Shown here: positions 46 through 34,578 of the stretch, piece after piece | How the letters are laid out: the number at the start of each line of letters is the position of its first letter | Position numbering within the stretch: the stretch's first letter is position 1 | Origin: Lytechinus pictus | Taxonomy: Eukaryota | NCBI RefSeq assembly: GCF_037042905.1 | Contig: NC_087250.1 | Span: 5,210,001 to 5,274,000 of the forward strand | Length of the DNA: 64,000 nt | Direction of reading: 5' to 3' | The notes under the pieces: model-generated | Database searches by the model: none | What the model saw: only the letters and a program-made list of their open reading frames with translations | What the model was told of the DNA's origin: nothing | Position numbers and translations under genes: made by a program

Positions 46-199
46 CAGATACTCCAATTTTTTTCCGAAGAGAGCGTCCTTTAGCGTGGAGCCTTCGATG
101 AGCTCAAGAATAAGATCGAAGCATAAATATTCGGTTCGGTTTCCTTGTTTAAACTTCGAGTATGCATACAGCATAACAATGTTGGGATGTTTGACCAGT
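46..199 (-). CDS. Protein kinase internal exon (subdomains IV-V: LVKHPNIVMLYAY...LILELIEGSTLKDALF)
   Basis: Acceptor TTTTTTTGCAG| before 199 and donor CTG|GTAAGA after 46 on the minus strand. HPNIV and LxLExxxGxxL kinase motifs are present. Splices in frame (GC|A = Ala) to the exon at 7040-7217. The gene continues left of the window. Confidence 0.85.
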
Positions 200-3121
200 C
201 TGCAAAAAAAGAAATGAAAACGCAAATCAGATGGATTCTCTTTCGCAGGCATATGACTAAAAACGCTGATAACTTAGCGCGAGACGCGACTGTTAAATAA
301 ATGCCAACTATTTCATTTCATTTCGTTTATTTCTATTTTCCATTATTACAGTTTTGTACATTTTGACATACAAATAACAAAACATGTTTCAAGTATCCCT
401 GTACAAAAATTATATTCAAGATATCTTGTATTGTTTTTTTACAGATGTGAAATAAATGAATTTGAATTTGAATAAACATATCAGGTTGGAAATGGAGGAG
501 GCTGCTAAAAAGCGGAGCTTGTAGAGTGCAGCCTCCTAATGAATATTTTTGTAGTTACATAGCATGTAAAAATCAAAATAACAACTTGAGCATACCAGTT
601 GAATTAAAAAGAAATAGGAGGAAATTAAAGTAGAAAAGGAAAAAAGAAAAAGAGAGATTAAAGGTCTCCAGAATCCAGCCCCAGTACTCGCAGACGGACC
701 TCGCTGATCAACAGGAAAACGAAAGAGATGGAAAAGTGTACGTCACATGATATTCATGTTTCATTAAAAAAAATACAAGAGTTTGAGTAATAAAGAGTTA
801 ATTCAATGGTTATCTTGGAGAAACTTTTTGAACTTCTATTTGAAAGAATTTAGGCTTTGTGATTCTTTGATGTTATTATTAATAGTTCCCCAGAGTCTAG
901 GGCCTTCAAAAGTAAAAATAGATTTTGCAAGGATGGTCCGGGGTAGTGGTAAATGGAATTCATCTGATTGACGTGTGGGATATTTGTGAAGAGTTTAGTT
1001 TTTGTTAAATGAAGAATTAAATATGGGTGGTAACATGTTATTTTTTAATTGATACATGAATTGACCTAAGTTAAATTGGTACAGTGTTTTTATTTTTAGA
1101 ATGTTATTATTGAAAAACAAGTGATCTGTGTGGGATCTCCAGGACAAGTTGAAAATAACACGCAACGCCTTCTTTTGTAAAAGCAATATTCTATCTAGGT
1201 AGGTCGAGTGTGTATTTCCCCAAACAATTGCTCCATTAGATATGGTAAAATTAACGTTGAATAAAGCATTTTTAGGGAGGAAGTTGGAAGAAAAAACTTA
1301 ACTTTGTTGATAACACCAATATTGCGTGAAATTGTACAACATATAAAGTCATTGTATGTTTTCCAAGATAAGTTGATGTCTATTATGAGACCTAATTTTT
1401 TTGTTGCAGTAACAATTTCAATGTATATATTGTCTAGTTTGATATTAAATGGCATTTGTTCTAAAGAATTGCTAAAAAGCATGCATTTGTTTTTTTGTAC
1501 ATTAGTTGACAATTTGTTAGCCCTAATCCATTGTACCAACTTATCCAGTTCAGTGTTCAGTACATTAATTAAAATATCGGGGTTAGGATGAGAGTAGAGT
1601 ACATTTGAATTATCTGCAAAAAGGACACGACATGATACTTCAGTTAACATCTTGTAGAGAAGAATTTTGTTAATTTATGCTTGCGAATTTGTTTACGATT
1701 TGCGAGGTAGTTTCTGAACCACTCCAAGACCTTCCCACGAACTCCGTAATTTTCAAGTTTGTAAAGAAGTATTTCATGATTTACAGTGTCAAAGGCCTTG
1801 GAGAGGTCCAGAAAAACACCTATTGTATGTTCGAAGTTGTCAATAGCTTTTTGTGATTTTGTCAATAAATGAGAGAGTGGCATGAGATGTACTATATTTT
1901 TGGCGAAATCCTAATTGAAAATCAGAAATTATAGTATATTTATTCAAATAATTTAATAATCTTGTATAGATCACCCTTTCCATAAATTTTAGACAAAGTA
2001 TGCAATAAAGCTATCGGTCTATAGTTACATACATTAATCTTTTCTCCTTTTTTGTGCACTGGTATCATCTTTGATATTTTCATATTGTCAGGCACGACGC
2101 CATTACTTAAAGAAAGGTTAAATATGTATACTAATGGATCAACAATATATTCTATAACATTTTTAATAAAAATATTGTCAATACCATCGTGACCACATCT
2201 TTTGTGTTTAAGTTGTTCACTTTATCTACTGGTACTAAAAATAAAGAATTAGGGTTTGGTTGGTATATGAAATATGTAAATTTCGTTTGTGTTACTGGTA
2301 TATTGTCTGCAAAACTGTTTCCAATTTGTGTAAAGTATTGATTAAATATATCAGCTATACGAAGAGAATCATGAATTTCAACATTATTGTGCTTTACTGT
2401 TTTTATGCTTTGTTTATTTATGGCAGTGTTTATGGTTTTCCATTTTTTATTGATGTCGTGTTTGAAACGAATTAATTGATTCGTGAAATATTTTTGTTTT
2501 TCACTCCGCAATAATTTAGTGAGGGTATTTTTATATGTAGTATATTTACGATGTGACTTTTCTGAGCGATTAATTTTATCGGCATAGTATAAGTTGTTTT
2601 TGCGATTTATTGATCGTAATATTGATTTCGATATCCAAGGAAGTCCTTGACTCTTTTTATAATTATTACATTTACTTACCAACGGTACATGTCTATCTAA
2701 ATGTGAAGTAATTTTTTTCATGAATAAATTACATGCTGTCTTTGTATCTTGAGAACAGAACGCTTCAGACCAATCCGCATCTTCAAGACCATCTTTTAGG
2801 CTCTGTAAATTATTTGGTGTTAGTCGTCGGAATTTATGTTGCGGGGTATTTTTTTTTTGCTTACCTAAACGGAGTTCTTGAAAATATCGGGAAATGGTCA
2901 GAAATATCAGATAAAATTATTCCAGACTCGGGTAAAGGAGAAACATTACAGAAAATATTATCAATAAGGATTGCAGATTGGTCAGTAACCCTAGTGGGTT
3001 TTGTTATCAATGGTAAAAAGGATGATGAAAGCATGATATAAAAAAATTCATGTGACCTATTGTGATTAGATTTAGATATGTCTATATTAAAGTCACATAC
3101 TACATAACAATCTTTATTATA

Positions 3122-4232
3122 AACAAGGCAAAAGCGATTTGTGTCTCGCCCACTTATGAAAATAACTAGAAATATCGTGATTTGCGAGGGCACGCCGCAG
3201 AATTATATCGAAACTTCATTGTGAAATGACTGGGATGGAATAACACTTGTCATAAGAGCCTTGCACGTTAACTCTAATGTTGACAAGAAAAAGACCTTTG
3301 ACCTTACCATGTGACCTCCGACTGCAGCCTAACATGCAGGTCCCCCAAGTCCATCTAGTGTCCAAGTTTGGTTGAAAAGTGACTTACGGTTGCGGAGCTA
3401 GGTGTCATAAGAGAGTCTTGCATGTAAACTTTAACGTTGACCTGAAAATGACCTTCACCTTACCATGTGACCTCCGACTGCAGCATAACATGCACGGTCC
3501 CCAAGTCCATCTACCATACAAGTTTGATTGAAAAGTGACTTACGGTTGCGGAGTTAGGTGTCATAAGAGAGTCTTGCATGTAAACTTTAACGTTGACCTG
3601 AAAATGACCTTGACCTTACCATGTGACCACCGACTGCAGCATAACATGCAGGTCCCCAAGTCCATACCATCCAAGTTTGGTTGAAAAGTGACTTACGGTT
3701 GCGGAGCTAGGTGTCATAAGAGAGTCTTGCATGTCAACTTTAACGTTGACCTAAAAATGACCTTGACCTTACCATGTGACCACCGACTGCAGCATAACAT
3801 GCAGGTCCCCAAGTCCATACCATCCAAGTTTGGTTGAAAAGTGACTTACGGTTGCGGAGCTAGGTGTCATAAGAGAGTCTTGCATGTAAACTTTAACGTT
3901 GACCTGAAAATGACCTTGACCTTACCATGTGACCTCCGACTGCAGCATAACATGCAGGTCCCCCAGGCCATCTACCATCCAAGTTTGGTTGAAAAGTGAC
4001 TGACGGTTGCGGAGTAAGGTGTCATAAGAGAGTCTTGCATGTAAACTTTAACGTTGACCTGAAATGACCTTTCACCCTACCATGTGACCTCCGACTGCAG
4101 CATAACATACAGGTCCCCCAGTTTGGTTGAAAAGAGACTTACGGTTGTGGAGTTATGTGTCATTAGGTTTGTGACGGACGGACGACATTTGGATCCCTAA
4201 GTCTCGCCTTCACCTCTGGTGGCCGAGACAAA
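3122..4232 (+). mobile_element. Helentron/HINE-like non-autonomous element carrying a ~155-bp tandem array
   Basis: 5' GTCTCGCC motif (3143), about 6 copies of a ~155-bp unit, a (CGGA)n microsatellite, and a 3' GTCTCGCC...GGCCGAGAC hairpin followed by an A-run. The LINE endonuclease frame rejoins approximately across it. Confidence 0.7.
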
Positions 4233-4417
4233 AAACGGATTTGTAGAAAATCTTGCAAGTATTCAAAAAAGTAATTTGTGTTGGAGTTAGGAGGTCTATA
4301 ATATACTGCGATCATTATGTTATTTAGAGTTTGGTATCCGAATTTCAATGATATGAGATTCAGCAATTTCATTCATACAATTAAGATCATTGTTAGTAAA
4401 ATATTTTAGTTCATTAA

Positions 4418-4970
4418 AGGGATGGTCCGGGCTAAAAATATTTATATCTTAATACATAAAGTAGAATTAACTGAGCAAAATGCCGAAAATTTCATCAAAA
4501 TCGGATAACAAATAATAAAGTTATTAAAGTTTAAAGTTTACCAATCGTTAGGTGGGCTGATGATGTCACATCTCCACTTTCCGTTTTCTTATGTTATTAC
4601 ATAAAATCATATTTTTTTTCATTATTTCATACTTGTGTGAATAATATGTCTCCCTTATAATGAAATAAGTTGCAGCAATAAATATCTAATGCATTAAATC
4701 AGTTGCCAATCCAATGTTTCTAGTTCTTGGGGGAACATTTTGAATAAACCTAATTTCATATAATAAAATACAAAAGAACAAGTGGGAATGTGACATCATC
4801 AGCACACCTAATGAACATTCATGACGACTGTTTTCACAAAATACTGCTAAACTTTAAAATTCAATAAATTTGTTATTTGTTATCCGATTTTGATGATATT
4901 TTCGGCATTTTGCTCAGTGAGTTCTACTCTATTTATTAAGCTATAAATACTTTCAACCCAGACCACCCCT
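4418..4970. mobile_element. Kolobok-like MITE with TTAA TSD
   Basis: TTAA|AGGGATGGTCCGGG ... CCCAGACCACCCCT|TTAA with a long internal palindrome. Removing it restores the LINE frame GISINELKYF. Confidence 0.85.
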
Positions 4971-5753
4971 TTAATAGAGATACCTACCCCTCCTCCCCGT
5001 CTATTACCCCTGCGGTTTTCTATGAACGTATAACCAGGAAGTGAGTATAAACCATCAGATTCCCGAGATAACCATGGCTCGGTTAACGCAATTATAGACA
5101 TTTTGATTTGTGAAGATGAATCGGTTAAAAGGCGTAAATTGTCGAAATTACTGCTCAAGCTCCTTATATTCATGTGCATTATTGAAAGTGTATTTGCTGA
5201 TTTATCAAGAGAATTAAATTGATTTATTGTAAAATAATTCGAACTTGGATAATAATTGTCGTTATTATCATTTATATCTGCAGCTAAATACATCTCATTT
5301 GATACGATATTTTCAAAAAAAGAATTGTAATTAATATTTTGGGTTTCGTTGTTCGGCCTCAACAAATTGTAAAACTCATCATCATTCAACATTGAAAAGG
5401 AGTAATTTTTAATCACTGGGAATTGAAAGAGAAAAACACGTAATGCAAAAAATCGCTTCCTGTAGAGACCGATGAGACCGCGTGCTCGTGAGTGTCAGCG
5501 AGGCAAGGATCTGGGGAGAAGAATAATTGGGTAAAAAAAAAAATGGTTAAACACATTCCTATGAAAAAAGAGATCACAAACACGTAAAAGTCATCAGGTA
5601 AACATTGGCAATTAAATACGATGTTAATTGCATCGTAAATATGTTGTACTTAATAAGCATAAAAGAATTGGCTGAGCTCCCGTGAATAAAACAAGCTGGG
5701 AAACCTTCCCTATAGAGTAAGATAAGGGATGACACAAACTCAAATTATTAATA

Positions 5754-6261
5754 CCCCCTTTACACCAGATGAAGTTTCCGCTACGTTCTTGAAGTTCAGA
5801 AGCAAACCAACGTGGCGCCAGCATGCACCCATTACACCGGAGGAAGTTCCCGCTACGTCCTTGAAATTCCGAAAAAATTGCAGGGACGTAGCGATAACTT
5901 TCTTGTTTTCAAAAAATATGAAATCGTCCCGAGCATGCTACGTCTGCGCTACGTCCTTGATACGTTCATGGTGCGTTAGTGGTGTTCTTTCCCTGTCCGC
6001 TACGTCTATGTTACGTCGATGGAGCTTTTAGTACGCGATAAGAAGGTCCTTAAGTGCGTCAGTACTACGCACTGCTCAGACGGCGCTCCCGCTACGTGGA
6101 CTTTGGACATGTTCACAGTCACGTGCAGTCATGCAGACTATGCCACGTCAATAACAGTTCTCGCTACGCTCTCAGTACGCTGCAGCAGTTCCCACTGCGT
6201 CATGGCCATTTTTCTTTGACGTAGCGAAAACTGCATGGACGTAGCGTTGGTGTAATGGGGG
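5754..6261. mobile_element. MITE with CCCCC(T/A)TTACACCA TIRs, flanked by TA
   Basis: TA|CCCCCTTTACACCA ... TGGTGTAATGGGGG|TA, with internal repeated CTACGT/ACGTAG motifs. Confidence 0.65.
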
Positions 6262-7039
6262 TAAGGGCATGCTTCCCAGAAAACTGAATGAAGGTGAAAA
6301 GTCATTCGAATGGAGTGGCGGTGTTCGTATATTTTAAAAAAACTTGTACTATCACACCTGGTATACAAATTGTTTGGCTTGTTCGAAATAGCTGTGAATT
6401 GATGAATAAAAAGAATGATCGTCTGAGATCCAGATAATGTTCACACTGAATATCATAAAGTATAGTTGATCTGTCTAAACCATAAATTAACTAAAGCTAT
6501 CTTTTTTTAAAATATAATTATAGAACGGTTAGTGCTTTTACATAACTACGTCCTACGTCTTCAGTGAACAGAGTAGTTAAACCTCTACATGACGAATTAC
6601 AAAGTTCTTTCCTCTTTTGTCCTTATGATTAATAATGAATATTTTTTATTTTTCTTCTTCAAAACAACAGAAAGAAAATTTTGCAGTCAAGAATAAGTCT
6701 TTGTGAACAATGTACAAGCATGGCATTAAAATGTACGCAAGGGTTCTATTGACAAGATTGTCATTGAATCCAAAATTCGAAAATAAATCCGGAATGGCCA
6801 GTTTACTGGATATATTAGAATTCATCAAGGTCACGTCGCTGGTTTGTTTGCTCTTTATAATCAAAGGAGTTACAATAATACATTCCTTTTTTATTCCAAA
6901 ATAAACCGTGAAATTATAAAAAAAAAGTCCCACCAGCACCTAGTATACAAAATATTTATCTTGCTCATGTGTATACATTTCCGGTGATTAATTTATGAGA
7001 TGCAAATATTTTCAGTCCCTTTAAATACGACAAACTTAC

Positions 7040-7217
7040 GCATTTATCTTGATCTCCTTTACCAGATCCAATGCAATCTTATCTTCAACACACTTTACCC
7101 GTTTTACGGCCACCTTTCTGCCATTCCAATTTCCCTCGTACACCTCCCCGTATCCTCCAGAAGAAATCAGGTCTAAGGTTGATACTTCGTACTCGGATTT
7201 ACCAATTTCTTCGATTT
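7040..7217 (-). CDS. Protein kinase exon (subdomains I-III, TKL-like: LISSGGYGEVYEGNWNGRKVAVKRV...KEIKINA)
   Basis: Gly-rich loop, VAVK lysine and alphaC Glu are present. Acceptor TCATCTTTTTCAG| (phase 1) and donor GC|GTAAGT (phase 2) match the exon at 46-199. Confidence 0.85.
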
Positions 7218-7519
7218 CTGAAAAAGATGATTTAGAAATGTACACAAATTTTGTTAGATAATATTTCATACACAATATACAGCATATGGGTTGTTGCGTC
7301 TAGCCAAATGTGGAAAATAATTATCACAGTCTCCCTTGCATAACAAAAGAACTGTATCCAAAGCTCATTGTGAAATGTGAAATCAATAATTTTTATGCTA
7401 CTCCATTTCCTTATCCGCTTTCCACCGTTCTCCAACCAGGGCTAAAATAATGTCCGATTTTAAAAGATAAATTCTGTTTCAAGGACACATGTAAAAAGTA
7501 CTTAGTATAAGTGTACGAA

Positions 7520-7900
7520 TCATACATGAGCCGCGGTTCAGACCATAGCAGAGCAGCGCTGGGCCGCCAAAGCTTCCCCGTGCGCGCCTGCAGCTAGAGT
7601 CGAGCTCAAAGACCTTATAATATATTACTAGACCAAAAGCTGCGTGCGCGTTCAGCACAAAACAAATGAGATTAGGCTCCGCCTACCGCGATCATTTGAA
7701 GACAAAAATAAGCCCTCATTGACATTCATGAGCATGAAGATATTCATAATCCGGCCTTTTCATTGGCTAAGAGCGTCATTAATACGCGATTTCCCCGATT
7801 CTTTGTCATCGATACTAGTGGTATCGTGTTACAGAATTAATTATTCATTTGACCTCATTACGTCATCTAATTTATTCATTCTGAAACTTTTCTTTCCACA
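7520..7900. promoter_or_regulatory. CpG-enriched promoter-like segment with an inverted CCAAT box
   Basis: Local CpG/GC enrichment in an AT-rich background and ATTGG at ~7763. It lies directly upstream of the exon-1 candidate at 7907. Confidence 0.4.
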
Positions 7901-7906
7901 CACAAA

Positions 7907-9960: not shown

Positions 9961-11873
9961 TTGATGATGATAAATAATTGGTGAAGTAGGCCTAATAGAA
10001 CAGCGACTAGACCACAAAGAGAAATACAACCTACAGCAGTTATATGAGTGAGTTAATTAGTGAATATTGTTAATAATGGAGGTTGTTCACATTTTTTCGG
10101 CAACAAATAGACCTGCCTTTGAAAAACCCATTTCAATTTTGTTTTTAGATTATAGTTAGTGTCGTTTTTAATCACAGATCAAAATATTCTGTGCAACAAA
10201 ACATATCAACTTTAATTCTGACTATTTATATAATTTACATATGTTGATTCATATATTCATATTTATGAGAAATCTCTGACATTTTTTCATAGAGTACATG
10301 TAGTTATAACGGAGAGTGGTATGTAAACTGCATAGAACAGGTTTAAGTGATATGCTTTATAGAAGTACAAGTTTATAATAAGTAGAAGTAAGATTTCCTG
10401 TTATGTGTTGAAGAAACATATATATGTATAGTCTCACTTGTTTTATAATTCACGACAATTTTAATTTAAATTCATTGATTTTCTTTCTCTATTTTTTCAA
10501 TCTGCAGGACTGGTGTAACAGATGTTTTCATTCAAGAAATCCAACAAATCAAGAGTCTGACTTAGGAACCACTTGATGAAGATGGAAAAGGTTTTTTTTT
10601 TCCAAGTCCAATTTAAAAAAAAAAAAAAATTCTTGTTGATTTTCATTAAAACTGGTTGCAAAAGGAGAAGCTATAAACATACAAATAGGAGCGGCGGAGT
10701 GAAGTTGAAAGTGGGGGGGGGGGGGGGGGGGGCATAGGGAAAATGCTGTATTACGTGAAATTTTTAAGAAGTTGCAAATTTTTGACATTTTTAAAAAGAA
10801 AATCTAAAATATTCATAATGATATATTTCACCTTTTTCTTTCCTTTTCTCTTTTTTTTTCTTGGTCGTGATTTTTTTATTTTTTTATTTATTTATTTTTT
10901 TTTTTTTTTTGGGGGGGGCAAGAGTCCTTCAAGCCCCCCCCCCCTCCATCCGTACAAACCTGCTTATATACCCCCACTCATGAATTATTAAACTTAATGC
11001 ACAAAGGATTTCCTTCATAAGTATATTATCGAAATGAGAATATTGTTTTCTTGTTTCAAAGGGCAATCGTCATGGTGTCCATAAAACGGGTCCTTCTCAG
11101 GTGAAAGGGGCACAGAACAAGTTCTTTAGGAGCACTTTTCTTGGGTAAAAAGGGGCAGTGATTCGAGAAAGGGCACTTACAAGAAGGCGAGGGGGCACTC
11201 TCTAACACATGAAACGGGCTCTCAGATGAAAGGGCACAGAACACGTTCCAGGGGGGGGGGGCATTTTGGGGTTAAAAAATTGCATACAAGGAAGAGCACT
11301 TGGTAACACCTAAAACAGGTTCTCGTCAGGTGAAAGGGACACAGTACACGTTCGTGAGGGGGCATTTTTCTTGCATAAAAAGGCACTTTTCAGTACTTAA
11401 AGAAGTAGGGGGAACTGTGCCCCCCCCCCCTCCCCAGGATCGCTGCCCCAGCATACAAAAAAATATTCTTTTGGTTCAAAGTATTAACATATATGCTTAA
11501 GAAAAAGGTAAAGCTTAATCCTCTGATAATGTGATATTTTTTTATGGCTAATTAATAAAATTCATCCCTAACCAGAGAATTCCTTTATGTCTTTCATTTG
11601 TGTTCATATAGTATTTGTACAGAGCTAAAATGAAAGGGATTTCGAATTTGCGAAATTCAAAATGAGATGAAGATCGAAAGAGGGAAAGAGTGATGAGAAG
11701 TGGATTGAAAAGAGATGAGAAAGAAATGGAAGGGCACATATGAAGAGATAATTTAGAGGGGGTGGTAAGAGAGCTAGAATGTGGGAAGTAGGAACAAAAG
11801 GGGTGGAAGAGAAATAAGACGAGATTTATGGAAACCAGGAGACAGATAACAAGTGGGAAAAAAAGAAGGAAAT

Positions 11874-12686: not shown

Positions 12687-13565
12687 GTAGGAGAAAGGCG
12701 GCACAAAAGAATTTTGAGTGAGAAAATGATTAAATGGAAAAAAAAAACAGAGTAAGAAATGCTGGAGAATAAAGGGGACAGGAAACGTATTAAACATAAT
12801 AAATTGGGGCCCGTTTCATCATGAGTTACAAGTATGGTAACTACGATTTAGGGATGGCAAAAGCTGTAGAGACCTCTTTACCTAATCACGACTTGATCTA
12901 CTCTTTTCATCTTCCCTTTTGGAATTAGCAAAGGCCTATAAGACGCAATACAAACAATGCTTTGTTTTTAAGTGATTATCGCTTGTGATATCGATACTTT
13001 ATATAGCGCAACATATCATCTCAGATTTGCGCTTGCTTGATTCGCTGAATCCTTCGCGTCACGAGCGCGTAACAAAATGAATACATTAATGAATTTGCCA
13101 AGTTGACCTTTGTCATTGCGCTGATGTGCGTATTGTCTAATACACGTACAAAACCACAGTTGACGAGGGAGCATCGTACGAAATTAATATTAATGAGGGC
13201 TTATTTTAGCTTCTAATGGATTAAACAAAATGGCGGTAGCTTCGGGGGCTTGGTCGAGCTAGACGCACGCACGCACTTTTTTTGCCGCTACCAAGCTTTG
13301 TTCCAGAGCCCCCAACCCCCGACTTTGGCGCGGCACATAGCTATCATGTTAGCATTCGAGTACCCCCCCCCCCCGGGCTGAGAACAGGCCATTACGGTTG
13401 ACACCAACGCTCACTCGCAGAATGAGACCGCACACACACACACACACACACAAACGTCCAACTTTGGCGATTGTCAAACTACTAAACCTTGCGTGTGTAC
13501 GATGATGTGTGTGTACATGTTAATTTAGGTGGGTTTGTGTATAAACACTACGACAAATAAATTAC

Positions 13566-13607
13566 CCCTTCTTTCTCTAGGCCTACGACCATCTCCAGCT
13601 CCAGAGT
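13566..13607 (-). CDS. Candidate 42-nt phase-1/phase-1 micro-exon (DSGAGDGRRPRERRG)
   Basis: Acceptor TTCTGTTTATTTAG| and donor AGGG|GTAATT. Open in phase 1, length divisible by 3. Confidence 0.35.
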
Positions 13608-15644: not shown

Positions 15645-16243
15645 GTTATACCTGTTTGAGCATCTCTATGAATTTCAATCCACTCTCTTCCGAGATGATT
15701 TGACCTTTAAGTTAGTACCTGTTATATTGTATACAAAATTTAGGTTTATTTTGTGTGGGATGTGTTTAGGTGTATAAAAGTGAGAATAGCCTACATATAT
15801 GTGAATGAGACAAATAGTGTGTGGGTGCGCGAGAGAGTGTGAAATATGGAAAAAATAAAATAGTCTTTGTCTACGTCTAAGCCTGTCTACAGACTCTAAA
15901 CTATCCAATTTATCACACCCTAACCCCCCCCCCAAAAAAAAAAAAAGAATAAACAAAATAAATAAAATGGAATAAGTTTAAAAGATAAGAAAATAACGAT
16001 AATGATGAAGATAAATTAATAAATAATTAATAAGGAACAAAAAAAAAAAAATATTCTTTCGCGTATAATTCACTTCCGCGCCAATACCTAATATAACAGT
16101 ACGACCAGACAATATCGGGTAGGCCTACTAATATACACTGCACCATATTATTTCACAATAGATGCTTACGAAAATTACCATTTGACATTTTTCACAAACC
16201 AGAATGTAGAATGTTTGAATATAACGATGTTATGTGTACTGAC

Positions 16244-16417
16244 CCTCTGGCATGGTGGGAGTAGATTTTTGGGCACCGGAAGACAGACTCGTATCAGATT
16301 CAGTTGCATCTTTAGGAGCTGAATTGTCGGGAAAGGAAAATGGTGTGTCTTCTGTGGTAACTGGTCCCGTACCTGGTTCTGGTGACTTTAACTTTGGTGC
16401 TGGAGGATGGTGTTCTC
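16244..16417 (-). CDS. Candidate 174-nt phase-1/phase-1 exon encoding a Pro/Ser/Thr-rich linker (GEHHPPAPKLKSPEPG...STPTMPE)
   Basis: Acceptor CTTCCTCCAG| and donor GAGG|GTCAGT. Open frame with higher GC than the flanks, and its phase matches the NACHT exon donor. Confidence 0.6.
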
Positions 16418-17934: not shown

Positions 17935-18654
17935 TTAGGAATATATATATAGGTATATAGCGGGGGATGCTGATTAGTGCCAAGATATATGATCCTTTTC
18001 AAAGATTTTTTTTCTTCCAAGATATATCATTTATTTAGGTGTTTGAAGACATTTTTACGAATAGACCCTACATTAGAAAGAAGAACAATAGCTGATGAAG
18101 TTTATCGCATGATAACCATCATTGGCAAATACTCTATCATGGGCATGATGAGTGAAGTCTGTGAAGAGCATTATTAAACAAAAGAAACTGATGAAAGATT
18201 GGATTGCATTTTTTTTGTACAGAATCTCCATCGTAATATCATGATAGGCTAATTTTTTAAATCTTTTTGAACCTTATTCGATATTTTTTAAATTAAATTA
18301 TATATATTTACTACCTGCTGCCATTTCATGTTTAAAATGTAATAATAATTCAATTTTGTAGGCATATATGATAAGGGGACATCCCGATAGACCGCGGGTC
18401 CGATAGACCGCGGGTCCGTTAGACCGCGGGTCCGATAGACCGCGGGTCCGATAGACCGCGGGTCCGATAGTCCGCGGGTCCGATAGACCGCGGGTCCGAT
18501 AGTCCGCAGTGTGTGTAAAATTATGATCAGATATATCAAATGTCATCGAGAGGTCCAAAGGTCAAATGATACGAGGCCATGGGGTTCTATCAGGTGCGGA
18601 TCCATGGAGGGCCGAGGGGGGACTGCCTCACCCCCCCCCCACCCCCAGCTCCCA

Positions 18655-19358
18655 AAAAAAGAGGGGGGAAGAGGGGAAAAGGGAGAGAATAAAAAAAAAG
18701 AGGAAGATGGGAAAAGAAGAGAATAGAAAAGAGGGTAAGAAGGAGAAAGGAAGAGAAGAAAAAGGGGAAAGGAAAGACAAAGAAAAAAGGGAGAAGAAAA
18801 GGGGAAAGAAGAGGGAAAAAAGAGGAGGGAAAAGGAAGAGAAGAAAAGAAAGGAGAAAGGAAAAGGAGGAAAAAGAAGAAAAAAAAGAGGAACGAAGAGA
18901 AGAATATCTAAATAGAGAGGAAGATGGGAAGAAAGATAAGAAAAAAGAGAGAGAGAGGAAGAGGGGAAGAAGAGAAGAAAGAGAGAGAGGGAGGAAGGGG
19001 AGAGAGAGAAGAAAAAATATTAAAAGAGAAAAAAGGGAGAAGGAAGAAAAAGAAAAAGGGAGAAGTTAAGGGGAAAAGAAAAAAAAAGTGGAAGAGGGAA
19101 AAGAAAAGAACGGAGTAAGGAAAAAGGGAAAAGAAGAAGAAAAAAGAGCGAGAGTAAGTGGGAAGAGAGGAAAAACGAGAAAAGAGGGAAAGAAAAGACA
19201 GCAAAAAGAGAAGAAAAGGGGGAAGATGGGGGAAAGAGAAGAAAGGGGGGAAAAGAAGAGGGGGAAAGAAAGAGAGAAAGAAAGAGAAAGGAAGGAAGGG
19301 GAATGAGGATAAAAGAAAGAAAAAAGAAAGAAAAGGAGATGGGAAACGGAAGAGGGAG
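18655..19358 (+). repeat. Near-pure polypurine (GA-rich) low-complexity tract
   Basis: About 700 bp almost exclusively A/G. It is the source of spurious K/E/R-rich and F/L/S-rich ORFs. Confidence 0.9.
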
Positions 19359-19368
19359 ATGTTGACCT

Positions 19369-19527
19369 GGGGAGTGTTTCATCAACATTTTCATCCGACA
19401 AGTTTTCAGATCTGACATCTTTCTCTGATGTTGATTGGCTGAGAGGTACTGTTACTATGGTAACTGTCGGATGAAATGGGACTTGTCGGATAAAACGTCC
19501 GACAAGTCCTTTCATGAAACGCCCCCC
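19369..19527. mobile_element. Short Harbinger-like MITE flanked by CTG
   Basis: CCTG|GGGAGTGTTTCAT ... ATGAAACGCCCC|CTGG. Confidence 0.55.
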
Positions 19528-23263: not shown

Positions 23264-24020
23264 TAATTAATACGCTTATTATTTTGACATAGCGATATAT
23301 TCTATCTTGTCAGGTCGATATGTCCACATGGCGAGATATGAAGTGTACAAGCCCCGGCGAGAATCCCGATATATCGCTATGTTGACATGTAACTTATTTA
23401 AGTCGACTTGGCAAGATAAAATATCTCGCCATGTCGTCAAGTCGATGGCTCCGTATGGCGTCTAGAGGGTAAATTTCCGGGGGGGGGGGGGGTAACAGTC
23501 CCTGACGATAAAATATGGGGATAATATTTTCCTTGAAGTAGATGTCAGGGGGTGATTGTCCTTTGGGTCATCGTTATAGAACCCCAATGGACTCGTATCA
23601 TTGGCCTTTTGACCTCTTGATGGCATTGGATCTCACTATATCCTGACCATAATTTTACACACACCGCGGGCTATCGGACCCGCGGTCTATCGGACCCGCG
23701 GACTATCGGACCCGCGGTCTATCGGACCCGCGGACTATCGAACCCGCGGTCTATCGGACCCGCGGGCTATCGGACCCGCGGTCTATCGGACCCGCGGTCT
23801 ATCGGGCTGTAACCATATGATAATGAATTACATTCCTTTACCCTTTCCTAGACAAGATTTTAAACTTGTAGGATGTGCAAATAATTATAACTAAATCTAA
23901 GTTAAATCTAGATCACTACGCACAAATTATAGATTTTGCCTCACTCTAATCCCCTAATAACAGCTTTCTGTGCCTTCTGCGCGGTAATTCTACCCATGTT
24001 GTTAGGAGTTGATTTGTTAA

Positions 24021-24603: not shown

Positions 24604-26908
24604 TTAATGGATAATACTATACAGATTGTGATGTCAAGCGTTGATCTCAGATGTAAATAATGCATTATAGCCATCGCGGCGAGATTACCGGTTGTAACAG
24701 GGCCCTTTGTTAGCGCAGTGTTAGTGAAATGTTACGCTAACAGCGTTTCTGTGCGGCCGATACTGGTCTTTTAGAGATTGTTTTATTTACATTATAGAAG
24801 AAGACTTTGTAATTAATTTTCAAACTTCTTTTCGCTTTGATTGATTATGTATAAATAAATATATATATATATAGCTTTTTTTCTCTGTCTTTTATCGAAA
24901 TGGTACAATAATTTTCTTGTGTTATTTGTAGTAAATGTGTTAAAGCAAATCAAAAAAGAATTGCTCTGTATTTTTTTCAAGCATGGGTTCACATACATGT
25001 ATACTGTACTGGAGACTCTACGATGACATAAGAAGACTCAAATGAGAATTCAATAAATTGGGAGTGTTCTAAATGTCTACTTTAACACCTTCCAAATTAT
25101 TTAGAAAATAATTCAGACCCTGATGTTGATGACTCTACCAAAACTTATCCAAAATATGACACTAAAAAAATCTTTAGAATATGAAGAAGTTACTAGTAAG
25201 GAAATAAAATTTGTTCATATGAATAGACAGTGTAACCTTTCTAAAAAATTACGAGGAAATAAAGCAAATTCTTTTGTTAAATAATATTAATTTTCTCGCT
25301 CTAATTGAGACTAGATTACATTTGTTCCACATTATGGACTGCTAAGAAGAGACAGGAATAGAAATGGAGGTGGAGAGGCTATTTATGTTCACGAGTCTAT
25401 CCAATTTGATGCGCTTAGTCACTCTTCGTTCATGTCGTTAGAACATCTAGAAGCTTTATGTATAAGATTTTGTTTTAAGAACACAAAAGCAGTTTTATTT
25501 GTAAATTGGTATAGGCCACCAAATTCCAAAATTGAACTGTTTAGTTTTTATGAGGACCTATGTTAATAGTTTCAATTGTCAGCTCATCATTATGGGCGAT
25601 AGAAACTTTGATATAATGAAAAACATTTTGAAGGATATACAAATTAAGGCCTATAATCAAATCGATGATATACATTATTTGAAACAGGTAAATAAAATGC
25701 TGTATACCAAAGTAACTGACATATCTTGCACTCTTGTTGATCATATACTAACTGATTGTCTTGATAAAATAAACTCGTATGGTATTATTCAGAATGGTAT
25801 GACTGATCATTATGCCAGTTATCTGGTATGTAAAGGTAACAAACTTGTTCAGAAGAAACGTTTATATCGTTCAGAAAGTCGGAAAATGTTGACGTGAAGG
25901 CTTTCAGGATGGATTTACATAATCGAAATTGGGAGAAATTCAAAGAATGTAGTAACGTCAATGATGCAACTAATGAATTGGAAAGATTGCTTCTAGAGGT
26001 AGTGAACAAACATATGCCAATAAAGACAAGAAGAGTAAGAAGAAAGCAATCCCCATGGATGAACAATGAAATACTGTCATTAATGAAACAGAGAGATAAA
26101 GCAAAAGTCACCACTGAGATAAGGAAATCTAAGCGGAAACATATCTTTGAAAGGTTATCTGAAGTTACCAATATAAATGAGTCTTGGAAAACATTTAAAA
26201 TTAATATGGGCAATGATTGTAATTCTTGTAGAAGCGCTTTCCCTAAACAAAATTCAAATGATTTTGCTTATGAGTTTAATGATCATTTTGAAAATATATC
26301 TTCTAACATTGGTAGTACTCACAACAAAGCTAAGAATAGACTCGATTCTCAGAATATTAGGTCTCGTAACAGGAAATTTAATTTTTTATATGTATCGCCA
26401 TCTAGTCTCTGGGAGCATGTAATGTCAATGAAAACTAAAAAGTAAGCTGGTTTAGATGGAATTTCTATGTTTATTATCTAGGAAATGTTACCTGAAATGA
26501 TTGAACCCTTTGCTTATTTGATTAATAAATCCTTATCGGAAGGGATAGTGCCAGACAAATGATGTGGAAAAAGTTATGCCCATACACAAAAAGGGAGACA
26601 AATTAGAACTACAGGCCGATCTCGTTGTTGCCTTGTGCCTCTAAAGTTTTGGAAAGAATAGTTCAAAGACAGTTACTCGATTATTTGATGATGTATTCCT
26701 TGCTTTGCCAAAATCAGTCGGGATTTTGCCCAAAACACTCGATTGTAACCGCACAAGCCACAGTCACAGATGACTGGTTCAACGCAATAGATAGTGGCTC
26801 CTATGTTGGCACTATTTTCGTAGATTTGCAACAAGTGTTTGACATGGTCGACCACTTCTTTTTCTAAGCTTGAGTCTATTGGTGTCAAGGGTATAAAAGA
26901 ATTACAAT

Positions 26909-29900
26909 TAGTCCGGATTATAATTGAACAAGGTGCCACTCGGAGGAGAAATTTTCATATAATGCTTCTAGACCAGTTTTTTTTACGCTGAATATGAATA
27001 TATGAGGTAAACAGGCTGTATCCTGAAAATTTACCTGTGAGGACGCTTTTTTCAAAATGGCCGCTGAATTTTCGTACGTAGATTTTGACATAAGCATTCA
27101 ATTGCCATTAAATTAGTGTCATATGAAAGCCAAATAAATTCCCTATAATTTGGTACTATTTATAGGGGATAAATAAATCATTTGGCTGAGATTGTAAGTA
27201 GAAAACTGCATTTTTTGTAGTTTTTCCCCAAAAATTTGAAATTTTGCAAATACATGATTTTACATATTTCTAAAAAAAATGAATGAATTACCTTGAAATG
27301 TTCCAGAAAACTTTATTGATATACTATTATCATGTGGATGAAATTCCAACTCCATATCATTTTTAAAGCAAATGTATAAGGTATCAAACTTGAATTATTC
27401 AATATCAGAAATGTCGCTTTTTGTATGCATTTCCATAGACTAATACGTATACCATGTATAATGCATGTATGTATAATGTATACAGGTAGTTAATAATTAA
27501 ATGCAATTTCCGCTTTTTAATCACTTGGAGAGTTAAGAGTAGGCTTTTCTCTATCAGCTATACATAAAAAATGTTGGCACATCGAGGTCTGACCCTCTCA
27601 TGGGGATGGGGGTGTCGAAGTCACCCCCCCCCCCTGCCCTTTGCTATATCATGTTGTTGTACACTGTTGTATATTGCCTATTTGTTGGAAAAATAATTTT
27701 TTTTTTTTTTGGAGCACCCATGGAGGCCAAAACAGGCATTTCTGCTATATTGTACAGCCACTTTGATTGCTTTGAAACCACTTGGAGAGGAAAGAGTAAG
27801 CTTTGTTCTACCAGCTTCATCTAAAGAAGTGGCATATCGAAACCTATCCCCCTCGGGTGGGGGAGCTTTTACTTAATATTGCCAATTTATTAGAAAATTC
27901 ACAATTTTGGACCCAACATTGAGACCAAAAAGCGTTTGTGCTTTGTTGTACCCCCCATTTTATTGATTTGAAACCACTTATAGAGGAAAGAGTAGAGTTT
28001 GTTCTACCAGCTACAATAAGCGCTGGTACGTTGAACCCTAGCCCTCTCAGGGGTTGTCTAAGTCAGCCCCCCCCCCCCTTCTATATCATGTATATTGCCT
28101 ATTTTATTGGGTATTTCACCTCTTTGGATAACCCATTTGAGGCAAAAGCGTATTTCTACTATATAGCACAGCCAATTTTATTTTCTTGCAATGACTTGGA
28201 GAAGAAAGATTAGGCTTTGCTCTATCAGCTACACATAAATAGGTATTGGCAATCGCAGCCTATCCCCTTAAGAATGTTCAGGGGGCTGTATAATTTACCT
28301 TACCAATTTTCGGTATTTGACTATCTATTAGACATTCACAATGTTGGATCACCCATTAAGGCAAAAGGGCGTTTCTACTATAGTACAGCAAATTTTCTTT
28401 TCTTGCAATGACTTGGAGAGGAAAGAGTAGGCTTTGCTCTATTAGCTCCATATAAAGAGGTGTTGGCCAACACGCGGCTGTTAAAGTTACCCCACTAATT
28501 TTTGGTATTTGGCTATTTGTTGAAAATTCACAAATTTGGAGCCCCCATTGAAGCAAAAAGCATCTCTGATATCTGATATATAGTTCTGTCACTTTTATTG
28601 TCTTGAAACCACTTAGAGAGGAAAAAATTGACTTTGCTCTATAATCTATAAAGATGTGCTGGTAAATAAAAGCCTACCCCTTCTGGGGGCTGTTGAAATC
28701 ACCCCCTCCCTCCTTTGCATTATTACCTATTTATTGGAAAATTCACAATTTTTAGCCCCATTGAGGTAAAAAGGCAACTCTGATATACAGGGTGAGTCAG
28801 AAAAAATGTCCCACTTTTGTAAAGTTGAATTGTTTAAAATATGAATATTTAATCATTAGTTTCATGATATGTCTTGATAGACGTATCCTCCAAGTACATT
28901 CAGGTACCATTTTCATTTGATCCCGTGCACGTATGACTGAACATCGGACAATCTTTAGAAGACTGTCAGATCTCACTTGCGCCAAGTTACTGGGTGATGA
29001 ATAAAACAGTGCTTTAGACAAAGACAGTCAGACAGACAGACTGGCATGCTCACACACACACACACACACACCCCCACACGCTAACACACACAACACACAT
29101 GGTAATAACCGGTTCATAATTTTCTCTTTTCTGATTAAGCATTGATTTTTAGCAAGATCGCTGAATGAACTTTGGGGGAAACAGATTCATTGTTGAACCA
29201 CAATAAACTACCTCAACAAATACAAAAATTCCCTTTTAATTGTTTGTGTTTTTATTCACCGACGTTTGCAGTAATTGTGTGCTTGTGTGTCTGTGTGTGT
29301 GTGCGTGTGCTTGTGTGTGCATGTTTGAGTGGGTCTGTCAGTGCGTGTGCGTGTGTGTGTGTGTTTGTGTGTGCGTACGTGTGTGTGTGTTTGTGTGTGT
29401 GTGTTTCAGTTTGTCGGACTGTCTTTGTTCAAAAGAGTGTTTTATTCCCTACCCTGTAACTTGGCGCAAGTGAGATCTGACATTCTTCTAAAGATTGTCC
29501 GCTGTTCAGTCATGCGTGCAGGGGATCAAATGAAAAAGGTACCTGAATGTATTGGGAGGATACCTCTATCAAGACATATCATGAAACTAATGATTAAATA
29601 TTCATATTTTAAACAATTCAACTTTACAAAAGTGGGACATTTTTTCTGACTCACTCTGTATCTTATACCTCAATGGGTGATCCATAAATGGTGAAATTTC
29701 CAATAAATAGGCAATATACATAGAGAAGGGGGGGGGGGCTGACTTAGACATCACCTAGGAGGGCTAGAGTTCGATATGCGTGCGCTTATTTATGTAGCTG
29801 ATAGAACGAACTCTACTCTTTCAAATCAATAAAATGGGGGTGTACTATGAAGCACAAACGCTTTTTTGCCTCAATGATGGGTCCAAAATGGTGAATTTCC

Positions 29901-30900
29901 AAATAAATTAGCGATAAGCAAAAGCGGGAGGGGTTATTTCCACAGCCCTCCCCCCCCCCCCCGAGAGGGGTAGGCTTCGATGTACCACTTCTTTTGATGT
30001 ATCTGGTAGAACAAAGCCTACTCTTTTCCTCTCCAAGTGGTTTTAAAGTGGCTGTACTGTATGCCAGAAATGCCTTTTGCCTCAATGGGTGCTTAAAAAA
30101 TAGTGATTTTCCATTAAATAGGCAATATACAACAACATGATATAGCCACGGGGGGGGGGGGGGGGGGGGATTCGACACCCCACCCCCTGAGAATGTTAGG
30201 CTTTGATGTGCCAACATTTTGTTTTGTGTAGCTGATAGAGAAAAACCTGCTCTTAACTCTCCAAGTGATTAACTAGCGGATATAATTGCATTTAAGTTTT
30301 AACTATGCATTATACATACATGTATTATACATGTTATACGTATTAATCTATGGAAATGTATACAAAAATCGACATTTCTGAAATTGAGGTTTTCAAGTTT
30401 GATACCTTATAAATTCGCTAAAAAGAATGATACAGTGTTGGAATTTTATCCACATGATAATAGTTAACCAATAAAGTTTTCTGGAACATTTCAAGGTAAT
30501 TCATTCATTTTTCTTAGAATCATGTAAAATCATGTATTTGCAAAGTTTTTAATTTTTGGGAAAAAATCACAAAAAATGCAGTTTTCTGCTTTAAATCTCA
30601 GCCAAATGATCTAATTATCCCCAATTAATAGTACCAAATTGTAGGGAATTTATTTGGCTTTCATATGACACTAATTTTATGGCAATTAAATGCTTATGTC
30701 ACAATCTATGTACGAAAATTCAAATTTTCGGAAAATAAGGCGGCCATTTTGAAAAAAGTGCCCTCACAGGTTAATTTTCAGGATACAGCAGTATACCTCA
30801 TATATTCATATTCAACGTAAAAAACTGGTCTTGCCTAGAGGCACTTTATGAAAATTTCTCCCTCTCCGAGTGCCACCTTGCTCAATTATAACCCGGACTA
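26909..30900. mobile_element. Academ-like non-autonomous DNA transposon (TAG...CTA termini, 3-bp TSD, >1-kb inverted arms)
   Basis: AAT|TAGTCCGG ... CCGGACTA|AAT. The arms are inverted for over 1 kb and contain ~200-bp subrepeats. Excision restores the LINE RT frame. Confidence 0.85.
28788..29658. mobile_element. Tc1/mariner-like MITE (TA TSD, ~250-bp TIRs, CA/TG microsatellites)
   Basis: TA|CAGGGTGAGTCAGAAAAAATGTCCCAC ... GTGGGACATTTTTTCTGACTCACTCTG|TA. Confidence 0.85.
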
Positions 30901-32701
30901 AATAGTTTGTAAACTATTTATCTAACAGGAAAATTAGAACTTGTATCAATAATGTACTTTCTGTAGAAAAGGCGATTACGAAAGGTATTCCACAAGGTTC
31001 TTTACTGGCACCGCTGTTGTTCATCATTTTTTTAAATAACATAAATTTTCATCTTTATGCAGATGACACGGTCATTCATTATTCGCATAAAAATTCGGAA
31101 GTTTTGGAAAATGTACTAAATAAAGTGTGTAAAGATCTGGTAACGTGGATGAATAATAACAATTTAGAGATCGATTACGAGAAAACTATATGCATATTGC
31201 TTGGAACAGGCAGCATGCTTAAAAACATCTTCTGAATATAAAACTTTAAGATCAACAGCTGTCTCAGGGAAATTTCTCGGTATTCATGTAGATGATAAAT
31301 TACGATGGGAAGGTCAATGGAAAGATGTGTAGCAAGATAAGTAAAATGGTCGGTTATCTAGGTAGATTAAGACAGTATGTGAACATGTCTGAAATTGAAT
31401 TGATATTTAAATCTATCTTATTACCCCATTCCGATTATGGAGATGTAATCTGGCAGTCTACTAGCAAAAATTGTTTATCACAACTGCAAAAAATAAAAAA
31501 CATTGCTGGACGGATAATACAAAAGGTTAACCCATACTCTCATACTTGTACGAATCAAATTCACAGCCGCCTTGGCTGACAAACTCTATTTGTCAGGCAA
31601 AAACCCTCCTACTCTTCACTTTTAAAGTATTGAATAACTTGACCTTAAAGTACTTGAAAGACAGATTCAGTCTAAAATCTCTTCCATATTCCCTCCAAAA
31701 TTTTAACATGATTACATTACCTAAATCAAATTCAAATTATGGTAAAAGAAAATTTGGATACAGAGCTTCCTCAGAATATAATAGATTACTCACTAATCTG
31801 GGTCAACTTCCCACTCTAACTAACTTTAGAAATCATCTTCATGAACTTCATGCACCATAGTTTTTATTAAGTTGTACCTCTTGTTTATTTATATATATTA
31901 TTTTGATATAATTATGTTTTACTTTATTTTATTTTAGTTTTGTTTTGTAATTCGTTATATCATTATCAATGGATTATAGATTTCATTTTATGATTTGTCA
32001 TATTAAATGTCTTACATTGCACTGGCCCCAAAGAAGACCAGCAGCAACAATTATAGTTGCAGGTGAATATGGGCTACCAGCCGTAGTTTTATCTTGCTTG
32101 TATATACTTTACCTTTTTATTTGTAAAATTGTATATTTTTATCTTACGGAAATAAAAACAAGACAAACAACCATTTCGTCCAATAACCAGTTGGTTCAGC
32201 ATTTTTTTTTGTACATATACCATTTGGTCTAAATGAACTAAGTATTAATTTGGCAAAATGAATGAAAATAAAATGAGTAATATACGAAATGGTTATGAGA
32301 CGAAACGGTCATAGACGAAGTGATTATGGGACCAAATGGTTATTGGACTAAAATCACTAAATTAATGGTTGTAAGACGACACGATGGAAGGGATGGCATT
32401 AGACTAAATGAAGGATCGTTGTAGCAAGAATTGCGTTTAAATGTAACCTAAAAAAGGCGATCTGAATCAAATAAACGGGGACATTTTGTTGTAACAACAA
32501 TAAAATATACACTATGAACTTCATAATGTTTTTTTTTTTTGGGGGGGATAAATAATTCGGCTAAGAGACATTTTCAGATTTACTAATTTTAAGAATTCTA
32601 AAACGTATAAGTGGTAAACCTATTAAGATAATCACATATCATGAGAATGTATTACCATATTAGCTCATGCAATGTATAAATTGATAAAAAAAGCAACTCA
32701 C

Positions 32702-34578
32702 CGCCTCTTGCCGGCCTTTTCCCCTTGACTATGATGCTGAGTTTCCTTACGCTCTTTTGCGTATGAGGTGGCTGGGAAGAATCTCCAGGGGCGGTTTCTT
32801 CATATTCGTAGTCGATGTTGTTCTTTTGGGGCAGACTGTCTTGTATCTTACGGGGGACGTCTAAAACTTCTATCTTTAATTCGTCAGTTGGAGATGCAGG
32901 ATGATCTGTAGCGTGTTCTAAGAAGTAGGCAAGAGATCTGGTCAGGATGTCCGATGGGGACAGGATCTGTAGCCTTTTTACCAATGGATGCAGGACACCA
33001 TTAAGACGACCATTACTTCTTGATTCGTAGTTCAAAGCAAGAATGAACTCGACCATGTACTGGTACTGCCCATCACCGGCTTTCCAATTGATTCCTTCCC
33101 CTTCCTTTGCATGTAGGCCGACATCTTTTTCGTAGGCCAAGGTAAGACCAACCATATGGCATACGATAGCCCTTGCCGCGTCGATGGACTCTCCACAAGA
33201 AAACTGAATCAAATTTCGAAGGGAATATGCATCATCCATGGAGCGTATATTATGGAGACTTGTGTGAAATGATTGTTTCTCTTCGTTGTTTCCATGGAGG
33301 AGTTTGGAGAAGCGTTTAGCAGCAATCCTCTGCTGAAATGGCCCATTGAGAAAGCTATAGATCTTCCCTTCACTTGCTTCATGAGTAGAAGGAATTAACT
33401 CCTCATGAACAGATTTCACCAAGAGTCCTTTACGAATTCCATATGTAAGTACGTCTTTTTTTAACTCCCCACAAACATCAAAGTCGCTTTCACACAGGTG
33501 AAATTCTTCTTGCTGACCGTCCTTCAAATAGCGATTGAATGCTACGACTGACAAATGCGCCATCGTTTGGTCTTTCGAGAGTGTAGGCCTCGTCCCAGTC
33601 TGGGTACGCATGTTGCTTTTCAGCGAGCTTGGACTTGAGACTGAATGTTCGATTGGTTCGGTATTCAGAGATGGATCTGAATGCCTCATGATGCAATCGA
33701 TGGACTTGTCTATAAATGCAGAACTAGTTTTTAGCTCACCCAGTGATGCAGGATTATCATTCCATTTCAGGATCTGGCACATTATGCACAGGAGCACTGG
33801 TGACGCCACCATGTCACGAAGCAATTCTGTGTTCTCAATATATTCCTTTACCTTTAACCCAAAGTCTTCTCTCTTGTCGAACACCTTCCCAATGTAGGTA
33901 CCAACTGAGGTTTTACTTATTCCCTCCACTTTCACATGGTCATAATTTCCATACACTTCACGGAAATCCCCGATCCCACCGGATTTCGTGGCAACCAAAA
34001 CGGTTAGATGTTGAAATTCTCGAAGGAGAACCATATCTTCGAGGGAGCTCGAATTCTGCTCACACACCGGCTGACCAGTCCTTTGCAATTTCATGTAGTG
34101 GTCAAGGATAACCAATATCTCATCGGCGCTTTCTTTGCACATATTCTCGATACCCTCCGGAGTGAAACTGGTGTTAGCTGGCAAACATTGCTTTTTTATT
34201 GCTTGGCCGAGACCAGTTCCAATTTCAACTTTCACTCCGTCAATGTAAAAAACAAGGCTGAAATTCTTCATTGGACCTTTGTTTTGACACCATTGGGATA
34301 GCCACATCTTGATTTCGGTTGTTTTACCGACGCCAGATGGACCAAAGAAGAGAATTCTTGTCTTATTGAAGTGGGGACCCTGAAAAACGTCGTTGGCCTC
34401 TATCTCCGGCATCCGCGGACGATCTGGGGTGATTTCACTCTTCTTCAGAATTACCGGGACATGAAGATCTTCAACACTATGAATTTGGGAATCCGTAGAA
34501 GGAAGGAGCGTTATTTTTAATGCATTGCCATAATGCATGTATTGTTGTTGTAACTGTTCCCGACACATTTCGATTGGC
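32702..34578 (-). CDS. NACHT-domain exon of an NLR-like (STAND NTPase) gene
   Basis: Uninterrupted ~625-codon frame with Walker A ILFFGPSGVGKTT, Walker-B position ILVILDHYMK, VLVATKS, ASPVLLCIMC and winged-helix-like YSFLNGPFQQRIAA. Acceptor polypyrimidine...CATTAG| (phase 2) and donor GGCG|GTGAGT (phase 1). Confidence 0.9.

Follow-up and report, generated by a model that had tools for sequence, protein, structure and literature searches.

A predicted sea urchin gene that probably joins an NLR-derived NACHT module to a C-terminal protein kinase

Introduction

Can an animal NOD-like receptor (NLR) carry its own kinase? Animal NLRs are taught as proteins that consist of a death-fold domain, a NACHT module and leucine-rich repeats (LRRs), and that recruit kinases or caspases as separate chains. 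The question is raised by a locus of the sea urchin Lytechinus pictus, in a 64,000-nucleotide stretch of DNA (RefSeq assembly GCF_037042905.1, contig NC_087250.1, positions 5,210,001 to 5,274,000 of the forward strand; hereafter the window, with positions counted from its first letter). An earlier reading made from the letters of the window (the sequence-only reading) proposed that five minus-strand exons encode a NACHT module, a linker and, in place of LRRs, a kinase. We find that the five exons probably form one NACHT-kinase fusion gene, a conclusion that rests on orthologous gene models in three sea urchin species.

Fusions of kinases to signal transduction ATPases with numerous domains (STAND proteins) are in print for plants (PMC4246468), fungi (PMC12258605) and bacteria (bioRxiv 10.1101/2022.07.19.500537), according to the available portions of these reports. 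A literature search found no paper that names the family described here or that describes a NACHT-kinase protein in animals. The main texts, as far as available, of five surveys and studies of invertebrate immune genes (PMC2858798, PMC3879445, PMC11508797, PMC5094078 and PMC8242945) mention no echinoderm NACHT-kinase; their supplements, which lay outside the search, may list it. The sequence family is already present in RefSeq and UniProt as uncharacterised models, and the novelty thus lies in recognising and explaining the gene rather than in new sequence.

Results and Discussion

Five exons form an open chain

The base composition of the window ranges from 33 to 43% GC, and long repeat-filled gaps separate short open frames; together with the protein matches, these features are those of echinoid nuclear DNA. 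All five candidate exons are found on the minus strand where the sequence-only reading had placed them (Table 1; exons are lettered A to E in the direction of transcription). Each is bordered by GT-AG, a pyrimidine run precedes the AG acceptor in all five, and the donors are, from A to E, GTGAGT, GTCAGT, GTAATT, GTAAGT and GTAAGA. Exon lengths of 1877, 174, 42, 178 and 154 nt give the phases: exon A ends in phase 1, exons B and C are 1/1, exon D is 1/2, and exon E starts in phase 2. This is exactly the series that had been reported, and the exons joined by coordinate yield an open frame of 808 residues with no stop. The frame is likewise free of stops when exon C, a micro-exon, is left out. 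Exon D had been described as having a strong acceptor and no Met ahead of the Gly-loop of the kinase; a pyrimidine-rich AG acceptor at 7217 and the lack of a Met between it and the Gly-loop are both read directly in the sequence.

Orthologous gene models are colinear with the chain

A search for proteins of nearly the same length with exon A returned three matches, and all three carry both NACHT and Pkinase. These are LOC135154507 of L. pictus (1097 aa), LOC121417768 of L. variegatus (XP_041467436.1; 1087 aa) and LOC754455 of Strongylocentrotus purpuratus (XP_030849513.1; 1113 aa), which are 83%, 80% and 52% identical to exon A, respectively; 83% is the highest identity of any database protein to this exon. 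By identity, the sequence in the window thus stands apart from both annotated Lytechinus proteins, although it is much nearer to them than to that of Strongylocentrotus. The databases label them "uncharacterized" or "protein kinase domain-containing". The Pfam NACHT family scores 41.6, 40.5 and 36.7 bits in the three orthologues, and Pkinase (PF00069) scores 135.8 bits in L. pictus, 136.7 in L. variegatus and 79.3 in an older S. purpuratus model. The kinase domain is full in both Lytechinus proteins and partial in the older S. purpuratus model; in the current one, XP_030849513.1, it is complete. Pfam detected neither LRR nor Death or CARD families on the three orthologues.

In a tblastn search of the window, residues 102-738 of the predicted L. 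pictus protein match exon A (E-value 0), and three further segments match exons B, D and E in colinear order (Table 1). Homology to the orthologues starts precisely at the acceptor of exon D. Residues 797-811 match the micro-exon at 9 of 15 positions, which is the single best match among 127,912 ungapped six-frame 15-mers (the runners-up reach 6 of 15, three times). With the micro-exon included, the chain covers residues 102-919 of the L. pictus protein, and identity of the joined frame to that protein is 84, 53, 64, 74 and 85% for exons A to E. The sequence-only reading had allowed that the match in phase could be due to chance. The colinear matches of exons A, B, D and E, together with the unique match of the micro-exon, indicate more than chance, and with the open frame of 808 residues they support the proposed order of NACHT, linker and kinase. 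The NACHT and Pkinase architecture that it had suggested seeking among echinoderms thus occurs in three predicted sea urchin proteins, each colinear with the chain. The micro-exon is present in the L. pictus model, absent from that of L. variegatus and partly alignable in that of S. purpuratus; the models treat it differently and are therefore not plain copies of one another.

Table 1. Positions of the five exons and of a candidate promoter in the window
Feature	Position	Strand	Basis
Exon A: NACHT nucleoside triphosphatase (NTPase) and helical domains after it, 625 codons	32702..34578	-	AG acceptor; phase 1 at GTGAGT donor
Exon B: Pro/Ser/Thr-rich linker, phase 1/1	16244..16417	-	tblastn to L. 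pictus residues 746-797, 56% identity, E 5.7e-10; GT-AG
Exon C: 42-nt micro-exon, phase 1/1, basic and Arg-rich, just before the kinase	13566..13607	-	Unique 9/15 match; GT-AG
Exon D: kinase subdomains I-III (Gly-loop, VAVK, alpha-C Glu), phase 1 in, 2 out	7040..7217	-	tblastn to L. pictus residues 811-868, E 9.1e-21
Exon E: kinase subdomains IV-V	46..199	-	tblastn to L. pictus residues 869-919, 84% identity, E 1.2e-21; GTAAGA donor at 45
Mildly GC-/CpG-rich stretch upstream of exon D, candidate internal promoter	7401..7800		GC 0.42-0.47; CpG observed/expected 1.0-1.4

The gene continues beyond position 1, where the remaining kinase exons lie, and probably past the other end of the window as well. 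Among 5858 candidates for longer relatives of exon A, none scored. When metagenomes were scanned with the three orthologues, 217 patterns matched and not one could be confirmed. Separately, the older S. purpuratus model (P0006) repeats the segment of exon E, and two short kinase-only models of that species (P0157 and P0158) nearly duplicate the C-lobe, which may point to another copy of the kinase, or to a duplication in the assembly, beside LOC754455.

The NACHT part and its descent

The NACHT module lies in a stop-to-stop frame of 664 codons (34646-32652, minus strand). Pfam NACHT (PF05729) matches residues 98-257 of the exon A frame with 44.8 bits (E-value 1.5e-11), above the cut-off of 26.7. 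The helical domain family NLRC4_HD (PF17889) scores 18.5 bits in the window (E-value 0.0027), under its cut-off of 25, and 26 bits in the L. pictus orthologue, just over it. NLRC4 is the best relative with a solved structure (E-value 6.5e-85 with a profile and 2.2e-6 with the single sequence), and in phmmer residues 429-499 align to it at the latter value.

Exhaustive searching with exon A brought up 418 proteins at E ≤1e-3, from which 150 representatives were listed. When these were compared with a profile of the kinases of the three orthologues, the fusion clade's own representative (P0005) matched and the other 149 did not. The 36 next-best relatives have NACHT with or without Death, LRR and NLRC4_HD, and Pfam Pkinase is absent from every one. 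Named neighbors are echinoderm NLRs, such as an S. purpuratus "NLRC4", an L. pictus Death-NACHT protein and an "NLRP3-like" protein of Asterias. In a tree of 44 NACHT regions, with support given by the Shimodaira-Hasegawa-like approximate likelihood ratio test (SH-aLRT), the three fusion proteins and the window form one clade (SH-aLRT 99). The successive sisters of this clade are two unnamed proteins from marine assemblies and then an S. purpuratus NACHT-LRR protein, and in the enclosing group of 19 rows (SH-aLRT 100), all five named members are from echinoderms and the others are unnamed. The fusion clade is thereby nested inside echinoderm NACHT-LRR and Death-NACHT proteins. Judged from these sequences, the NACHT part is a descendant of echinoderm NLRs, and the most economical account has an echinoderm NLR of canonical type losing its repeats and acquiring a kinase before the split between Lytechinus and Strongylocentrotus.

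The two sister proteins, P0007 (756 aa) and P0008 (624 aa), are 40% and 32% identical to exon A, respectively. The Walker B motif of P0007, DNYDK, is intermediate.

The nucleotide-binding motifs of the fusion proteins are altered in part. Walker A is GPSGVGKTT, aligned to the GKTT of 13 relatives, and the Asp of Walker B (34161-34103) is kept, within DHY-x-K in the window and Lytechinus and DNY-x-K in S. purpuratus. The acidic pair after Walker B, which is in the form DGYDE or DSYDE in all eight more distant relatives shown (P0009-P0016), is replaced in all four fusion proteins. At sensor 1 (34008-33964), the window and Lytechinus have ATKS and S. purpuratus has ATTS, versus TTRP in relatives, so that the sensor-1 Arg is Lys or Thr in all four. 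With Walker A and the Asp of Walker B retained but the acidic pair and sensor-1 Arg lost, the module is predicted to bind nucleotide, probably with weak hydrolysis. The losses, being common to all four fusion proteins, are old and tolerated.

The kinase, the linker and the missing repeats

Two frames of the window, 7299-7036 and 273-7, encode the first five kinase subdomains. The Gly-loop, the VAVK Lys and the alpha-C Glu are present in this part (subdomains I-V), and the fragment in exon D alone matches the Pfam family PK_Tyr_Ser-Thr at an E-value of 0.0088. Across the three orthologues, the Gly-loop, VAxK, the alpha-C Glu, an HSD-IK-x-DN catalytic loop, DLG and PPE are invariant. These motifs suggest that the orthologue kinase is probably an active Ser/Thr kinase of the type that lacks the Arg-Asp pair (non-RD). 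Kinases of the non-RD type are linked to innate immune signaling in different kingdoms, according to the available text of PMC8463890. The best matches among solved kinases, with E-values from 1e-16 to 4e-14, are Src/Abl, NEK1, CTR1, STK24/25, TAK1, PAK1, ASK1 and a CDK-like kinase, and the top 60 of 1882 such matches include neither RIPK nor IRAK. An atlas search with the kinase gave generic kinase clusters only. By sequence comparison, this is a kinase without a clear family.

Exons B and C encode a 72-residue linker, of which 88% is P, S, T, G, E, D, K, R, A or Q and 8% is hydrophobic. LRR exons had not been recognised between the NACHT module and the kinase, and our searches agree. The window has no LRR remnant (the sole tblastn match has an E-value of 0.56 and is on the other strand), and no six-frame piece of it has two or more matches to the LRR consensus.

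One gene, two genes or a decaying copy

A number of observations weigh against the fusion or against its expected working. The orthologues are computational gene models. The catalytic half of the kinase lies beyond the window, and its motifs are read in orthologues only. Conservation of exon B is weak proof of coding because its identity is 49-53% to Lytechinus and 20% to S. purpuratus. A six-frame search with a profile of the three N-termini found nothing in 34579-64000 that corresponds to orthologue residues 1-101 (best E-value 1.9), and their exon either has been lost or sits over 29 kb upstream. The degenerate NTPase motifs leave the working of the NACHT module as a switch in doubt. There is an in-frame ATG at 7269-7267, in the intron and 17 codons upstream of exon D, and in S. 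purpuratus, a genomic open reading frame starts with Met upstream of its exon D, making a kinase-only product conceivable.

The last of these points bear on an alternative in which there are two genes. A NACHT-only gene would end after exon A or at an intronic stop exon, a kinase gene would start upstream of exon B or D, and the database models would be chimeric. Read-through past the donor at 32702 reaches a stop after 16 codons, and two proteins of the run assembly from S. purpuratus (P0159 and P0160) end just past the same donor. These and P0173, however, are the output of a gene caller on unspliced DNA and therefore say nothing on splicing. The intron between exons A and B, 16.3 kb long and full of repeats, also counts for two genes. 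Nevertheless, neither exon B nor exon C has its own start, both preserve phase 1/1 and match the linker of the orthologues in frame, the homology at exon D begins at the acceptor, and models of three species agree on the fusion yet differ in detail. A search for shorter proteins spanning the NACHT-linker-kinase junction of S. purpuratus found one, the genomic open reading frame of exon D only. As for the start of a separate kinase gene, the sequence-only reading had pointed to the ATG at 7269 and to a promoter-like island at 7520-7900. The ATG is there, and the island proves to be only mildly rich in GC and CpG (Table 1), with no second copy in the window. We consider two genes improbable, and an additional kinase-only start near 7300-7650 conceivable.

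Two further segments of the minus strand, 12882-12935 and 15651-15720, have plausible AG...GT borders, in-frame stops and no homology to the orthologues. They correspond to the stop exons that the sequence-only reading had suggested near 12880-12935 and 15650-15720, and could act as poison exons if spliced in.

The N-terminal region raises another alternative, that the locus is a decaying copy that has lost its N-terminal exon and is heading to a pseudogene. The unmatched 101 residues and degenerate NTPase motifs would fit such decay, as would the end branch of the window in the tree, 0.13 compared with 0.025 and 0.042 for the Lytechinus proteins. But the frame of 808 codons is uninterrupted, the splice sites of its five exons are intact, each of the four fusion proteins shows the motif losses, and the N-terminal exon may simply sit outside the window. 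We regard decay as very improbable. One fusion gene is the reading that we retain.

No death-fold domain was detected by Pfam on residues 1-101 of the orthologues, alignment of the N-terminus by hhalign to the Death domains of relatives gave a probability of 0.4%, and an atlas search with the N-terminus returned no usable match.

Proposed working

The predicted protein would be an NLR-derived STAND protein of four parts: a short N-terminal region, a NACHT module with NLRC4-like helical domains, a flexible linker of ∼72 residues and a C-terminal Ser/Thr kinase that occupies the place of the LRRs in canonical NLRs. A cue sensed by the helical domains or the N-terminus would cause the NACHT module to oligomerise. 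Oligomerisation would bring tethered kinase domains together, leading to trans-phosphorylation and downstream signaling. The logic would be that of an NLR and the kinase that it recruits, here combined in one chain. An oligomerising NACHT module with the tethered kinase as its output is the best-supported mechanism, though one that we propose tentatively and at somewhat less than an even chance.

The kinase could instead be an integrated decoy, located at the C-terminal position of sensors in STAND proteins and watched by the NACHT module for interference by pathogen effectors, with output through the N-terminus or a partner. There are precedents for this interpretation in the available text of two reports: the C-terminal protein kinase of barley Rpg5 has been interpreted as an integrated decoy (PMC4246468), and in nine NACHT NLRs of Sordariales, a C-terminal Pkinase has been proposed as a decoy (PMC12258605). 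Conservation of the N-terminal ∼100 residues between the two Lytechinus species also speaks for a decoy. However, the catalytic motifs are all kept across three species, and no LRR or other repeat stands beside the kinase, unlike in Rpg5 and the fungal cases, which are described with full canonical architectures. Nor did a mimicked parent kinase emerge, as the best solved matches are to unrelated families with E-values of ∼1e-15. A decoy in a real fusion protein is therefore unlikely, if less so than two genes, and we favor kinase output because every catalytic motif is kept and there is no accompanying repeat domain.

Taken as a whole, the history and working could be those of a single-chain NLR signalosome of camarodont sea urchins, in which an NLRC4-clade NACHT protein shed its death-fold domain and LRRs, lost its hydrolysis residues to become an assembly module with poor hydrolysis, and gained an active non-RD Ser/Thr kinase on a flexible tether, so that one polypeptide would combine sensing, oligomerisation and kinase output. 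We put this forward as a possible but doubtful scheme. If true, this would be the first described animal NLR with an integrated kinase, whether the kinase is an output or a decoy, and a compact system for induced-proximity activation of a kinase by a NACHT module. With the hydrolysis motifs lost throughout the clade, one may ask how such a switch would be reset. The fusion would also have a bearing on the diversification of the very large NLR repertoire of sea urchins.

Other features of the window

Several repeats and mobile elements lie within the introns of the gene or upstream of it. In the intron between exons A and B, arrays of a 16-bp tandem unit at 18384-18530 and 23643-23789 form inverted arms of ∼147 nt with 95% complementarity and a spacing of 5.1 kb, and resemble the termini of an insertion of DNA-transposon type. 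The same intron has a reverse transcriptase fragment (30906-31235, plus strand), the second in the window. The first is part of a non-long-terminal-repeat retrotransposon at 60059-63702 (plus strand), whose three overlapping frames encode an endonuclease, a reverse transcriptase and, at a sub-threshold score, a PHD finger. Two low-complexity tracts rich in purines (GA), each of ∼0.8 kb, at 18600-19400 and 39100-39950, give long spurious open frames on both strands. A 153-bp tandem repeat with 5.7 copies and 93% matches occupies 3248-4122, in the intron between exons D and E. Open reading frames at 995-5494 (minus strand) resemble pieces of a long interspersed nuclear element by eye, and Pfam had no hits in the three that were scanned. 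An Rfam scan of the window gave no matches.

Comparison with known systems

The closest counterparts are the three RefSeq orthologues, which have the same architecture, exon order and altered Walker B and sensor 1 as the gene in the window. They differ from it in their N-terminal 101 residues, which are not in the window, and the L. variegatus model also differs in having no micro-exon.

Animals do have an NTPase switch fused to a Ser/Thr kinase in the ROCO proteins (LRRK2, DAPK1), where a GTPase of the Roc-COR type serves as the switch. Pfam reported neither Roc nor COR on the orthologues; with the frames of the window included, it gave only NACHT, NLRC4_HD, kinase families and a marginal AAA_7.

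Members of the NLRC4/NAIP clade and echinoderm Death-NACHT-LRR proteins are alike in having NACHT followed by helical domains, which in the window are probably of the NLRC4 type. Relative to them, the clade of the window has no detected CARD or Death domain, no LRR, and neither the acidic pair nor the sensor-1 Arg, and it has a kinase. The likeness to NOD1/NOD2 and RIPK2 is in working only, in that a NACHT oligomeriser is coupled to a Ser/Thr kinase output (for the role of RIP2, see the available text of PMC3879445). Here, the kinase is on the same chain, no CARD was detected, and the kinase matches place RIPK and IRAK outside the best 60. Among echinoderms, AjNLRC4 of a sea cucumber (PMC8699970) is an NLRC4-like protein with immunoglobulin (Ig) and NACHT domains that is described, in the available text, as functional with neither LRR nor death-fold domain (no CARD). 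It differs in being a membrane receptor with an Ig domain and in having no kinase.

In other kingdoms, barley Rpg5 (PMC4246468) and the T-NACHT NLRs of Sordariales (PMC12258605) likewise have a STAND NTPase with a C-terminal protein kinase. As far as these sources are available, their repeats are kept and the kinase is an addition interpreted as a decoy, and the NTPase of Rpg5 is NB-ARC rather than NACHT. Some bacterial proteins (bioRxiv 10.1101/2022.07.19.500537) also combine NACHT in one chain with an effector domain that is a protein kinase. They differ in that the kinase is listed as an effector domain, the systems are prokaryotic and anti-phage, and there is no orthology, according to the portions available. 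The plant and fungal NLR-kinase fusions are independent inventions in other kingdoms. If the sea urchin gene is what it appears to be, animals, like plants, fungi and bacteria, have explored the fusion of STAND proteins to kinases.

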